Of a DNA stretch of 38,652 nt, positions 2,417-21,612 are shown in pieces. Under the pieces are notes generated by a model. It worked only from the letters and a program-made list of their open reading frames with translations. It was not told the origin of the DNA and did not search any database. The DNA lies in the NCBI GenBank assembly GCA_964441535.1, contig CAYTXQ010000001.1:1-38652 (forward strand), written 5' to 3'. The position numbers and the translations under genes were made by a program. Each line of letters opens with the position of its first letter. Within the stretch, counting starts at the first letter, position 1. The stretch is from an uncultured Muribaculaceae bacterium. Its GTDB lineage: Bacteria; Bacillota_I; Bacilli_A; RF39; UBA660.

Positions 2417-3361
2417 ATGAAACCAAAAATTGCAGTGGTCATGCCAGTTTACAATGCAAAAAATTTTATTAGAGAAGGACTTGATAGTTTAATTAATCAA
2501 AGTTTTAAAGATATTATAATTATATGTGTAAACGATGCTTCTCCAGATAATTGTAACAAAATATTAACTGAATATGAAAAAAAAGATAATCGTATTGTGG
2601 TTATCAACCACGAAATAAACAAGGGTGCTGGTGCAGCTAGAAATACTGGACTGGATTATATTTATGAAAATTTACCTGATGTTGAATATATTTCTTTTGT
2701 GGATGCCGATGACCGAATTGAACTTAATACTTATGAAAAAACTTATAATGAAGCAAAAAAATCTGATGCTGATATTCTAAATTTTAATTTTCTACCAAGC
2801 ACTTATTGGCAATATAAAACAGAAGCCAATAGTGAACCACTTGATTATAAAAACGATTGTTTAGATGCATTATTTGAACATAAAGAATTTTATACCTTTG
2901 TTGTATGCTGGAGTAAACTTTACAAAAAAGAATTATTAAGGGATATACGTTTTTCTGATTTAGGATTCTTTGAAGATGGGAATTTTGCTTATAAAGTTCT
3001 TCCGAGAGCTAAAAAAATGCGAGTTATTCCAGATACACTTTATTTTTATAATATTGAAAATCCAGAATCTACATGTGGAAAAATTTCTAATGCAAATAGA
3101 TTGAAAGCAATTTTTAAGACAATAAAAGAAACTTTTAATGATTGGGAAAAACTTGGAATTCTTGAAAAGTACAAGTATCAATATATTCAACATATTCTTC
3201 TCTACACTTCATTGGTTTGTCCTGATGTTTTAGAGGGTAATTATATTAATGAGTTAAATAACTGTTTTGGACTAAATGTTTTAGATGAAAAAATTATGAA
3301 TAAAATGTCAGAAGAAACTAAAAGTCTAATTTTAAAAATGACTAAAAAAATTGAGGACTAG
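2417..3361 (+). CDS. family 2 glycosyltransferase
   Basis: Start moved to the ATG at 2417, preceded by AGGAGG (2405-2410). GT2 hallmarks are present: KIAVVMPVYNAKNFI..LDSLINQSF, VNDASPD and FVDADD. Confidence 0.8.
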   Translation: MKPKIAVVMPVYNAKNFIREGLDSLINQSFKDIIIICVNDASPDNCNKILTEYEKKDNRIVVINHEINKGAGAARNTGLDYIYENLPDVEYISFVDADDRIELNTYEKTYNEAKKSDADILNFNFLPSTYWQYKTEANSEPLDYKNDCLDALFEHKEFYTFVVCWSKLYKKELLRDIRFSDLGFFEDGNFAYKVLPRAKKMRVIPDTLYFYNIENPESTCGKISNANRLKAIFKTIKETFNDWEKLGILEKYKYQYIQHILLYTSLVCPDVLEGNYINELNNCFGLNVLDEKIMNKMSEETKSLILKMTKKIED

Positions 3362-5723: not shown

Positions 5724-6416
5724 ATGGAAAAAGGTAGTTTTAAATTAAATAATATAACAAAAACTTTAGCAGTCTTTCTATTATATTTTACTTATACAAA
5801 TATTACTATGTATATTTGTAATACTTTTGGAATTAAATATGATTTAAGTATTGCATTATATGTTGATTGTGTTTTTATGTTTATACTCGTATATATATAT
5901 CAAAATAATATTAAAGCTGATATAAAAAATCTTAAAGAAAATTATTCACTAAAGAAAATTCTAAAGACTATAATTTTTACTGTTTTAATAATTTTCTTTG
6001 CATATCTTTTATTTACTTTAATTGTTACTGTTTTTTTCCCAAATGTTCAAACAAGTAGTGATGATAATACCGAAAAAATAAGAGATTTATACAATATTTC
6101 AGTTTTTTACACTATATTTAAAACCTTAATTTTTGGTGTTGTTGCTGAAGAATTGTTATTTAGAGAGGCTGTTAGAGATATAATAAAAAGAAAATGGCTA
6201 TTTATAATAATAAGTGTTTTAATTTATACAACTATAAATTTTATATATACAGATTTTACAACTAAAACACTACTATTTGATATTATTTTTAAATTATATT
6301 GGGGTTTTATGTTTTCCATTACTTATATTAAAAATAATAGTAATATAGTAATATTGATATTAATTAAATTTGTGTATAATTTAATTCCATTGACAATTTT
6401 GTTATTGGGATTATAA
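5724..6416 (+). CDS. CPBP (CAAX/Abi) family intramembrane glutamic endopeptidase
   Basis: Polytopic membrane protein with the CPBP motif 1 EExxxR in GVVAEELLFREAV. Size (230 aa) and topology are typical of the family. Confidence 0.75.
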   Translation: MEKGSFKLNNITKTLAVFLLYFTYTNITMYICNTFGIKYDLSIALYVDCVFMFILVYIYQNNIKADIKNLKENYSLKKILKTIIFTVLIIFFAYLLFTLIVTVFFPNVQTSSDDNTEKIRDLYNISVFYTIFKTLIFGVVAEELLFREAVRDIIKRKWLFIIISVLIYTTINFIYTDFTTKTLLFDIIFKLYWGFMFSITYIKNNSNIVILILIKFVYNLIPLTILLLGL

Positions 6417-7124: not shown

Positions 7125-8759
<1,635 letters not shown>

Positions 8760-8769
8760 CTCTATATAA

Positions 8770-8778
8770 ATTATACCA
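8770..8778 (-). promoter_or_regulatory. extended -10 (TGgTATAAT on the minus strand) very close to the DUF192 start
   Basis: The reverse complement of 8757-8780 reads agTGgTATAATttatatagagGTG. Only about 10 nt separate the -10 from the GTG, implying a very short or leaderless 5' UTR. Confidence 0.35.
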
Positions 8779-8842
8779 CTTATATTAAATTAATTAAAAT
8801 TTATTATTAAAATTTATTTATTACAAAAAAAGATCCATGATA

Positions 8843-8871
8843 TTTACTTTATATTAAAAATGTGTTATATT
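8843..8871 (+). promoter_or_regulatory. promoter candidate of the repeat-RNA / toxin-like operon
   Basis: TTTACT (8843-8848), 17 nt spacer, TGt-TATATT (8863-8871). Confidence 0.5.
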
Positions 8872-8876
8872 ATCTT

Positions 8877-8893
8877 TGCAATCAAAGATTGCA
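8877..8893 (+). promoter_or_regulatory. perfect 7-bp inverted repeat at the predicted transcript 5' end (operator or 5' hairpin)
   Basis: TGCAATC-AAA-GATTGCA. Confidence 0.4.
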
Positions 8894-8902
8894 TGTGCTA
8901 GT

Positions 8903-9013
8903 GTAGTAAATGTTAATCGCTCCCGGATGGTGCGAACAATAAATTATTCCGGTAGTTAAATTTTAATCGCTTCTAGATGGTGCGAGCAATAAATTATTCT
9001 AGATGAAAATGTT
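8903..9013 (+). ncRNA. tandem direct repeat array (2 full units of 49-50 nt plus a partial third), candidate type III antitoxin RNA
   Basis: Unit 1 (8903-8951): gtagtaaatgTTAATCGCTcCCGGATGGTGCGAaCAATAAATTATTCCGG. Unit 2 (8952-9001): gtagttaaatttTAATCGCTtCTAGATGGTGCGAgCAATAAATTATTCTAG. A partial unit runs from about 9002 (atgaaaatgtt..). The array sits between a promoter and a terminator, upstream of a toxin-like ORF. Confidence 0.6.
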
Positions 9014-9049
9014 GAAAACTTTATCTGATTTGATAGAGTTTTCTTTTTT
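9014..9049 (+). terminator. intrinsic terminator between the repeat array and the downstream ORF
   Basis: GAAAACTTTATC (9014-9025) pairs with GATAGAGTTTTC (9032-9043) with one G.U, followed by 6 T (9044-9049). Confidence 0.7.
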
Positions 9050-9081
9050 GTTATGTTAAAATTATGTTAGGAGTTGATTAT

Positions 9082-9216
9082 ATGCAAATTAAGACAGGAT
9101 ACATTTATCATATTAAAGAAAGTTTTTTTGATAAAGTTAAAGATAAGGGATTAATGACAAATCATGAAGCCGGTCACTTTAGACCAACATATTTTACAAT
9201 TAAGTACGTGATATAA
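9082..9216 (+). pseudogene. truncated (44-codon) ToxN/AbiQ/CptN-like type III toxin N-terminus
   Basis: SD TAGGAG (9068-9073), ATG at 9082. The product is MQIKTGYIYHIKESFFDKVKDKGLMTNHEAGHFRPTYFTIKYVI*. The G-[FY]-Y..(8-10)F.DK......N....RP.Y pattern resembles N-termini of type III endoribonuclease toxins from memory. It stops at TAA 9214-9216, far short of the roughly 155-190 aa usual for such toxins. Confidence 0.5.
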
Positions 9217-9669
9217 ATGACAGAAATTATAAAAGAAGAATACTTTAAACAAAATTACCAGAATCCAAGTTATATATTTCATGGTTCTAAACAATTATTA
9301 GAAGTTCTTAATCCAAATTTAGCCCACGATGAAAATGGAAATAAAATGAATATTCAGAATGCAATATATGGAAGTTCAGTATTTATTGGAGCAATACCTT
9401 ATGCTATAAAAGGTAGAGGTAAATATGATTGTTCAATTGGTTATAATATTGATGATTTAACGATGAAAATCACTAGAGGAATAGTACCAGAAGATGATTT
9501 TGGATATATTTATGTATGTGATGCCAGATGTTTTTCTCAATGTGAAGATACTTGTCAATATGTTTCCTACGAAAGTATTAAACCTTTAGAAATAATAAAG
9601 ATATATTATAAGGATTTTAAGGATTGTTTTCTGTATATAGACGAAAATAAAAGTGAAAAAAGATTTTAA
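9217..9669 (+). CDS. hypothetical 150-aa protein (no family recognised), in frame with the preceding toxin-like fragment
   Basis: The ATG at 9217 directly abuts the TAA of the upstream fragment in the same reading frame, and no SD is visible. The sequence contains YIFHGSKQLLEVLNP, AIYGSSVFIGAIPYA and several Cys (CDARCFSQCEDTC). Confidence 0.5.
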   Translation: MTEIIKEEYFKQNYQNPSYIFHGSKQLLEVLNPNLAHDENGNKMNIQNAIYGSSVFIGAIPYAIKGRGKYDCSIGYNIDDLTMKITRGIVPEDDFGYIYVCDARCFSQCEDTCQYVSYESIKPLEIIKIYYKDFKDCFLYIDENKSEKRF

Positions 9670-9674
9670 AAATA

Positions 9675-9702
9675 AAAACTTGGTATTAAAATATCAAGTT
9701 TT
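9675..9702 (+). terminator. intrinsic terminator
   Basis: AAAACTTGGTAT (9675-9686) pairs with ATATCAAGTTTT (9691-9702) with one G.U and a 4-nt loop. Confidence 0.55.
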
Positions 9703-9761
9703 ATTAATATAGTATAAATAGGTGATATTTTAAAAAATATTTAATAAATAAAGGAGTTTTA

Positions 9762-9790
9762 TTGACAAAATAGTCAAAAACATTTATTAT
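9762..9790 (+). promoter_or_regulatory. promoter candidate of the flp/tad operon
   Basis: TTGACA (9762-9767), 17 nt spacer, TATTAT (9785-9790). The -35 is part of the inverted repeat TTGAC-aaaata-GTCAA. Confidence 0.55.
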
Positions 9791-9811
9791 TAATAATAGA
9801 GGTGGTTATAT

Positions 9812-10027
9812 ATGTTGAACCAAAAAGGACAAGCGTTGGTTGAATATGTTTTGATTATAGCAATTATAAGTGTTATTGCTATTGCTTTAGTAAATTATTT
9901 TGGAGGATATTTAAAAGATAGTATAACAAAGACTTCTTGTTCTTTAGTTGATGAAGTATATGTTGGATATCCAGATGCTCCTAGAGGAGAGGCTAAATGC
10001 GTTCCTGAAGGATCAATTTCACAATAA
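9812..10027 (+). CDS. flp: Flp family type IVb pilin
   Basis: 71 aa. It has the class III signal-peptide / Flp motif MLNQKG|QALVEYVLIIAIISVIAIAL (G-xxxxEY). The SD is GAGGTGG. Confidence 0.8.
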   Translation: MLNQKGQALVEYVLIIAIISVIAIALVNYFGGYLKDSITKTSCSLVDEVYVGYPDAPRGEAKCVPEGSISQ

Positions 10028-21379: not shown

Positions 21380-21385
21380 TTTTAC

Positions 21386-21612
21386 ATAAACAAAGAACAA
21401 GAGGAGTAAATTATTTAATAGTTTATAGAGAGAAATAGTCTTTGGTTGAAAACTATTTTAAATGAAAGATAATTGAAGGTAGCTTGGGAGTTATATATCT
21501 GAAATAGTAGTAAGATATATCGTATATATGCGTTAAATATTTGAGGTAATTAATAATTACAAATTAAGGTGGTACCACGTAATCACGTCCTTATGGATGT
21601 GGTTACTTTTTT
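21386..21612 (+). promoter_or_regulatory. T-box leader (tRNA-sensing riboswitch), probable Val (GUA) specifier
   Basis: Stem I elements: AGTA (21405-21408), AGAGA (21427-21431), and an apical helix AAATAGT/ACTATTT with a GGTTGAAA loop. The helix AATTAT (21409-21414) / ATAATT (21469-21474) lies above a specifier loop GAAGGUAG, and CAAG (21398-21401) / CTTG (21483-21486) lies below it. GUA (21479-21481) plus a purine sits directly before the lower helix. The T-box sequence is AAATTAAGGTGGTACCACGT (21561-21580). The terminator is GTAATCACGTCC-ttat-GGATGTGGTTAC plus T6 (21579-21612). Confidence 0.8.

Follow-up and report, generated by a model that had tools for sequence, protein, structure and literature searches.

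A probable degenerate CptIN-family type III toxin-antitoxin locus with an unrelated gene in the toxin position

The DNA analysed here (the window) is a stretch of 38,652 nt from an uncultured Muribaculaceae bacterium (GTDB lineage Bacteria; Bacillota_I; Bacilli_A; RF39; UBA660), namely positions 1 to 38,652 of contig CAYTXQ010000001.1 (assembly GCA_964441535.1). One region of it, 8843-9669, had been described in an earlier note, made from the letters alone, as a complete type III (RNA antitoxin) toxin-antitoxin (TA) architecture with an unusual repeat length and a broken or remodelled toxin. The region carries a tandem array of CptI antitoxin units, a 5' remnant of a gene for a CptN endoribonuclease toxin (cptN') and a further open reading frame (ORF), orf150. 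Its features, in window coordinates, are as follows:

8843..8871, + strand: promoter-like site TTTACT-17-TATATT with an upstream TG (extended -10, TGnTATATT), 9 of 12 matches
8877..8893, + strand: 5' leader hairpin with a perfect 7-bp stem, TGCAATC/GATTGCA (arms 8877-8883 and 8887-8893), and a 3-nt loop (repeat search; minimum free energy (MFE) and centroid folds)
8910..8959, + strand: CptI antitoxin unit 1, 50 nt; stem S1 8917-8920/8932-8935, stem S2 8923-8927/8948-8952 (nhmmer E=1.8e-14)
8960..9009, + strand: CptI antitoxin unit 2, 50 nt; stem S1 8967-8970/8982-8985, stem S2 8972-8977/8998-9003 (nhmmer E=4.9e-12)
9010..9013, + strand: start of a third unit, TGTT, which completes the conserved AAAUGUU boundary motif (same in relatives)
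9014..9049, + strand: intrinsic terminator between antitoxin array and toxin ORF, with a 12-bp stem, a 6-nt loop (hairpin 9014-9043) and a T-run to 9049 (terminator scan; MFE fold)
9069..9073, + strand: Shine-Dalgarno (SD) sequence AGGAG, 8 nt 5' of the ATG at 9082 (read from the sequence)
9082..9216, + strand: cptN', 5' remnant of a CptN endoribonuclease gene, 44 codons and TAA; homology over 9082-9204, residues 1-41 (NCBIfam, tblastn)
9217..9669, + strand: orf150, 150 aa, an unrelated gene in the former toxin slot and not part of the TA module by descent (own family)

The promoter (8843-8871), the 7-bp inverted repeat (8877-8893), the terminator (9014-9049) and the SD with its ORF at 9082 were all present where the earlier note had placed them. 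The type III TA layout that it had recognised was borne out as well: the arrangement, the position of the terminator and the gap of about 72 nt to the start codon are shared with a related locus, L005, and with about 60 genome loci. The 8843-8871 site is regarded as a putative promoter of the cptI-cptN' transcript. The scan returned 13 promoter-like sites where 11.2 were expected, a number not above chance; this site occupies the same position as the near-consensus TTGAC[AT]-17-TATAyT promoters of the relatives, which are located 16-38 nt 5' of the first unit in most related loci. In a terminator scan of 8700-9850, the hairpin at 9014-9043 was the sole terminator-like site (1 against 0.1 expected), and a homologous hairpin is found at the equivalent place between repeats and cptN in the relatives. 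The program-made ORF started at 9064; all homologues start at the Met at 9082.

The CptI array and its relatives

Tandem Repeats Finder (TRF) reported the array at 8903-8999 (period 50, 2.0 copies, 87% matches), and a gap-free repeat search gave a 43-nt core present at 8907-8949 and 8957-8999 (88% identity, 50 nt apart). A hidden Markov model (HMM) of the units of the relatives placed two full units in the window, at 8910-8959 and 8960-9009. Two full units and a partial third had been read from the letters before, and TRF and the unit HMM agreed with this, the third unit being the 4-nt TGTT. Nearly all related loci have the same truncated third unit immediately 5' of the terminator. The AAAUGUU boundary at 9010-9013 is presumed to be the last processing site, and we infer its role in cleavage. 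Further CptI units were sought elsewhere in the 38.7-kb window and none was found.

Relatives were collected in a scan for cptN loci, using one genome per species. The scan gave 73 cptN loci, most of them encoding intact proteins of 154-163 aa. The hosts are mainly metagenome-assembled genomes (MAGs) labelled uncultured Bacilli or Tenericutes, or Clostridium sp. CAG:628 and CAG:914, with distant members in Lachnospiraceae. Many arrays were missed by TRF, the units within one locus often differing by 25-35%, and autocorrelation and an nhmmer unit search were used instead. The autocorrelation scan, applied to the 300 nt upstream of each cptN, detected a repeat in 60 loci, with a period of 48 nt in 5, 49 nt in 21, 50 nt in 31 and 51 nt in 3. 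The earlier note had proposed a search for the 50-nt unit in related genomes; tandem arrays linked to CptN were found there, and the repeat length that it had called unusual is the modal one. The spacing in the window (50 nt, then 49 nt) is identical to that in L005.

In the 33 cptIN loci surveyed previously, the repeats were 40-48 nt long (mean 44.8) and present in 1.9-3.4 copies (Blower et al., 2012; PMC3401426), and the crystallised CptI unit of Eubacterium rectale has 45 nt (PMC4627078). The array of the window, with 2.0-2.1 copies of 50 nt, is a tandem repeat of the CptIN kind that lies 2 nt above the 2012 range. An undescribed family or sub-family had been suggested on account of the unit length. 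This suggestion was not sustained: four intact relatives, from loci with 48-51-nt repeats, scored 152-190 bits against the NCBIfam model NF047359 (type III toxin-antitoxin system CptIN family toxin), whose cut-off is 90 bits. Judged by these comparisons, the 50-nt unit extends the published range by 2-3 nt and is the mark of a sub-clade within CptIN rather than of a new family. Of modest wider value is the finding that uncultured low-GC gut Bacilli contain a large clade of CptIN, with CptI units of 48-51 nt.

An H-type pseudoknot model had been read from the window units and was tested on the relatives, in an alignment of 97 distinct units (S1, columns 8-11 with 25-28; S2, columns 13-18 with 42-47). 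Standard pairs were found in 87.9% of cells, against 28-52% when the 3' partners were slid by 1-3 columns. Both sides had changed in 168 cells, against 54 in shuffles, and the observed pairing or covariation score was reached in 0 of 500 shuffles. S1 was 99.5% paired, with one pair split 69:28 between UA and CG, and four S2 pairs showed 13-45 double changes each. In the window, all S1 and S2 pairs are standard in both units, and S2 covaries between them through compensatory CG->UA changes (CCGGA/UCCGG in unit 1, UCUAGA/UCUAGA in unit 2). At the positions conserved in at least 90% of the 97 units, unit 1 conforms throughout; unit 2 departs from the consensus once, by G->T at its position 3 (window 8962). 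Each CptI unit is thereby shown by computation to be a predicted 50-nt H-type pseudoknot, which looks intact in the window. No match reached the Rfam gathering score in the region, where only sub-threshold chance matches (PyrR, snoRNAs) and no type III antitoxin family were obtained; because Rfam returned no CptI family, the 97 units could seed a covariance model.

In the Lachnospiraceae-type loci L061-L063, L066, L070, L071, L076 and L080, the two units of each array are strongly divergent (e.g. S1 CCGC/GCGG vs CCAC/GUGG). Each of these units still looks self-complementary by eye, and the family HMM finds one of the two.

The toxin remnant and orf150

Residues 6-41 of cptN' align to positions 1-36 of the 150 positions of NF047359 (E=1.9e-9). 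The score of 37.5 bits is under the 90-bit curated cut-off because the fragment is truncated; a full-length toxin (about 150-165 aa, with active site) is not encoded, and the membership of cptN' in CptIN is, on this alignment, by descent only. When a reconstructed L005-type relative was used as tblastn query, 71% identity was obtained over residues 1-41 (9082-9204). The L005 protein, rebuilt across a frameshift, itself matches the CptN of E. rectale (PDB 4RMO, E=7.6e-17). A phmmer search of cptN' against the PDB gave no match, the query being too short, and the reconstructed relative was used in its place.

The earlier note had likened the N-terminus to ToxN/AbiQ/CptN-type toxins and had asked for profile searches of 9082-9216 and of the conceptual 195-aa read-through product. 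The likeness to CptN stood and that to ToxN/AbiQ did not. CptIN was the only NCBIfam match, no profile of ToxIN/AbiQ (Pfam ToxN_toxin) or TenpIN matched cptN' or the read-through product, and Pfam and PADLOC returned no relevant match for the 44-aa or the 195-aa sequence, even at E<=10.

The active site of CptN comprises a Ser-Ser-Arg triad, Asp81, Ser85 and Tyr104 (PMC4627078). The conserved PLSS motif starts at about residue 51, beyond the breakpoint of cptN', and all catalytic residues are encoded downstream of that breakpoint. The toxin must be considered dead, because homology stops at codon ~41, before every catalytic residue: codons 1 to ~41 of ~156 are kept, and about 115 codons with the whole active site are gone. 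Other pieces of cptN, including a C-terminal remnant, were searched for by tblastn in the 38.7-kb window and none was found. The module is accordingly not complete, as had been claimed, and of the alternatives 'broken or remodelled' only the first applies, the 150-aa part behind the remnant having no similarity to CptN.

Two metagenomic contigs (L009 and L010) contain the same locus with the same junction, at about 98-99% identity to the window. In L009 the remnant has lost 1 nt from a T-run at codon ~16, and in L010 one extra nt is inserted at the junction, so that three strains have three different remnant ORFs. Such differing frameshifts give cptN' the appearance of an unselected pseudogene.

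The ORFs 9082-9216 and 9217-9669 are in the same frame with a TAA between them, and the ATG of orf150 directly follows the stop codon of the remnant (TAAATG). The orf150 product had no Pfam or NCBIfam match. Its close homologues are 147-161 aa long, and the family comprises 775 cluster representatives at E<=0.001, some members being fused to transglutaminase-like, P-loop (kinase) or HD domains and others standing alone. The homologues in L001-L004 adjoin unrelated genes, and no tandem repeats were found when they were sought upstream of these homologues. Because its homologues lie in other contexts without tandem repeats, orf150 is read as a foreign gene of an independent family, separate from the toxin C-terminus. 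In L001, a P-loop kinase-like gene is located directly upstream of the orf150 homologue, and Pyr_excise and Metallophos genes are located downstream.

AlphaFold2 models were confident (predicted local distance difference test, pLDDT, 86.5 and 91.5). In the Foldseek search of the PDB, the eight best matches all had the ADP-ribosyltransferase (ART) fold (Arr, Arr-2, the Rhs toxins TreTu and TreX, PARP1, TNKS2); these matches were weak (E 0.05-0.5, template modelling (TM) score 0.28-0.45). H22 was invariant in a 17-sequence alignment and at least 90% conserved in a 105-sequence alignment, and G23 was invariant in both. The conserved motifs H-G-S, A-V-Y-A/G-S/T and G-Y-V-Y-V are compatible with an H-Y-[E/Q] ART, and family members gave weak Pfam matches to DUF6886 (33 of 105), ART-PolyVal, NarE and DUF3990. 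A family sequence profile gave no meaningful match against the PDB. Arr and other minimal ART-fold proteins, the best Foldseek matches, resemble orf150 in size (about 140-150 aa) and in having the motifs H-G-S, Y-G/A-S/T and G-Y-I/V-Y-V in the same order, but no significant sequence match to Arr was obtained and the TM score to Arr structures was only 0.34-0.42. The gene that replaces the toxin belongs to an uncharacterised family of about 775 cluster representatives with a probable ART-like fold, of which the motifs and the weak Pfam matches are not proof.

Origin and state of the locus

We consider it likely that the region is a degenerate CptIN-family type III TA locus which was inactivated by deletion or recombination, with orf150 left in the toxin slot. 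The order of promoter, about 2.1 tandem repeats, intrinsic terminator and toxin is that of the CptIN systems of Coprococcus catus and E. rectale (PDB 4RMO; NF047359). The toxin N-terminus is homologous, the repeats are H-type pseudoknots (short first loop, long A-rich loop), and the location is chromosomal. Of the traits by which CptIN is recognised, a homologous toxin (by descent), tandem repeats, the H-type pseudoknot and a Rho-independent terminator are found here. The window differs in its unit of 50 nt (45 nt in E. rectale, 40-48 nt in the 2012 survey) and in its toxin, which is cut to about 41 homologous residues without an active site and followed in frame by an unrelated gene. Processing of the repeat transcript into units by the toxin, inhibition of the toxin by these units and a kill/rescue phenotype are expected to fail because the catalytic core is absent. 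ToxIN/AbiQ-antiQ and TenpIN share the overall operon logic, with a toxin neutralised by the RNA that it processes, but their toxins have no Pfam, NCBIfam or PADLOC match in the window, and there is no sequence relationship between the repeats.

Both the system (CptIN) and its degenerate state are of a known kind, and the locus is a new member, not a new family. Truncated toxins behind complete repeats had been described by 2012, as cptN genes of 45, 54, 66, 81 and 101 aa that had kept full repeats and a terminator (Blower et al., 2012; PMC3401426). Those of Bryantella formatexigens (45 and 66 aa) and Lachnospiraceae 9_1_43BFAA (54 aa) are, as in the window, short N-terminal remnants behind full repeats and a terminator, and the 44-aa product here corresponds in essence to the published 45-aa case. 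The window differs from these loci in its host, of another lineage and with very low GC (24%), whose relatives are MAGs labelled uncultured Bacilli/Tenericutes and Clostridium sp. CAG:628; it differs also in that both the breakpoint and the gene which took the place of the toxin are definable. Taken alone, the locus adds little, since pseudogenised CptIN modules of this type have been on record since 2012.

As to its history, a deletion or illegitimate recombination would have fused cptN at codon ~42-46 with the start of orf150 and its ribosome-binding region, possibly at a GTGATAA(A)ATGA-like short stretch common to both parents. The bases just 5' of the orf150 ATG, GTGATATAA, resemble the GGTGAT SD region of the L001 and L003 homologues, and they also resemble codons 42-46 of cptN in relatives, cGTGATAATGAC. 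The junction may have formed at this short shared stretch; such a microhomology mechanism is a conjecture. Following the event, transcription that passes the cptI terminator would reach orf150. Production of CptI RNA may continue, and the RNA would find here no cognate toxin that could process it or be neutralised by it, so that the locus would no longer function as a TA or abortive-infection module and would be in neutral decay.

In the 12 or so nt immediately 5' of the orf150 start (window 9196-9216), the window shows about 5 differences and an indel relative to L010 (AAGTAC-GTGAT vs AAAGATAGTAAT), the strains being otherwise about 99% identical. In the window, the resulting sequence includes a partial SD (GTGA) and the TAAATG stop-start overlap. 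Translation of orf150 may have been tuned by these differences, or they could be the trace of a small patch of recombination.

The fate of broken loci in general was assessed among 51 Bacilli-type loci, about 12 of which (roughly a quarter) have a broken cptN. A repeat unit was lost in 4 of the 12 broken loci and in 1 of the 39 intact ones (Fisher p=0.009, not corrected for phylogeny), and two units are still carried by 8 of the 12. Because broken loci lose units more often than intact ones, the comparison argues that orphan arrays generally decay, and it gives an approximate picture of decay in type III TA loci. A conserved small-protein family had been raised as a candidate by a word-indexed search that gave only 43-77-aa proteins. 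It was rejected, since the contexts proved to be those of frameshifted cptN, with at least 51 full-length relatives; in L005-L008, a frameshifted cptN is read as an ORF of 65 aa and, after and overlapping it, one of 94 aa.

Independent frameshift alleles of cptN were seen to cluster in one A-rich tract at codons ~63-66 (4180-4200 in L005-L008; ~3183-3203 in L012; P0037, P0041 and P0046). Compared with the intact L012, GATAAAAAAATT is 2 nt shorter in L005-type genes, and the resulting 65-aa product is indexed in 166 blocks of the assembly collection. In P0037 and P0041 (75 aa), the frame after the KK codons implies a 1-nt loss, as read from protein rather than from DNA. The tract may act to switch the toxin on and off, or it may be a hot spot of mutation.

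Three points weigh against simple decay at the window locus. The array, promoter and terminator are almost undecayed, perhaps because the event is recent or because selection has retained them; the three strains, at about 98-99% identity, are too close to gauge selection; and, with 38.7 kb of the genome visible, a second cptN elsewhere could use this CptI. In an alternative that we regard as unlikely, the CptI array is kept under selection as an orphan antitoxin, an anti-addiction or immunity element directed against a CptN of a phage or mobile element or of a genomic paralogue. The integrity of the promoter, both pseudoknot units, the boundary motif and the terminator, with a single deviating conserved position, would fit such a role, as would the two units kept by 8 of the 12 broken loci, the part of the genome outside the window and the existence of genomes with several cptIN loci (PMC3401426). 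However, according to PMC4627078, CptI is highly specific for its cognate CptN and non-cognate pairs give no rescue. The release of single units requires CptN, the significantly more frequent loss of units from broken loci is as neutral decay predicts, and the strains compared are too similar to reveal constraint.

Still less probable is an exchange of toxins, in which the ART-like orf150 replaced CptN and is now controlled or neutralised by the repeat RNA and the leaky terminator, as a new type III-like module. If true, this would be a toxin exchange within an RNA-antitoxin system, the cassette having been captured by an effector of wholly different fold. orf150 is exactly in the toxin position, 3' of terminator and SD, the TAAATG overlap of the window would permit translational coupling, and the fold resembles ART enzymes that include the Rhs toxins TreTu and TreX. 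The homologues, however, stand alone or are fused to other domains and have no repeats upstream, and the extensive, co-evolved CptI-CptN interface (PMC4627078) makes binding of an unrelated fold unlikely. In L009 the remnant ORF stops early, by which coupling is lost, and the ART assignment is weak (Foldseek E 0.05-0.5; no Pfam match for the window protein).

Read-through of the in-frame TAA (9214-9216) would yield one fusion protein of 195 aa. This would suit the shared frame of the two ORFs in the window but is effectively excluded by the frameshifted strains L009 and L010, where the remnant is out of frame with orf150; in addition, the conceptual product gains no match other than that of its N-terminal CptN fragment, the homologues of orf150 share its start Met, and the other ORFs of the window end normally under table 11.

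Flanking region

The locus had been placed in a pocket between obg/DUF192 and the Tad operon, and these flanks were confirmed: Obg and DUF192 are encoded upstream, and a Flp/TadE/CpaF pilus operon is located downstream. An intact orthologous cptIN between obg/DUF192 and tad genes was sought in other genomes and none was found. Another uncultured Bacilli MAG (L053) has a decayed cptIN 2.9 kb upstream of a flp pilin gene (2823-3180 and 5950-6165), the flp gene being 52% identical to that of the window. The repeats of this cptIN are kept, and its toxin is without the N-terminus and cut at 58 aa. A 549-aa gene on the opposite strand and a partial duplicate of that gene are located between cptIN and flp. 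The position of cptIN next to the tad operon may be ancestral to a wider group.

Downstream of orf150, a weak AT-rich hairpin (ACTTGGTAT/ATATCAAGT) followed by TTTTATT is found at 9678-9706, with too few G-C pairs to be called in the terminator scan. A strong promoter-like site for flp (TTGACA-17-TATTAT) lies beyond this hairpin, at 9762-9790. Finally, a T-box leader was identified at 21384-21595 on the + strand (Rfam RF00230, 115.5 bits, E=4.6e-25), unrelated to the CptIN locus.

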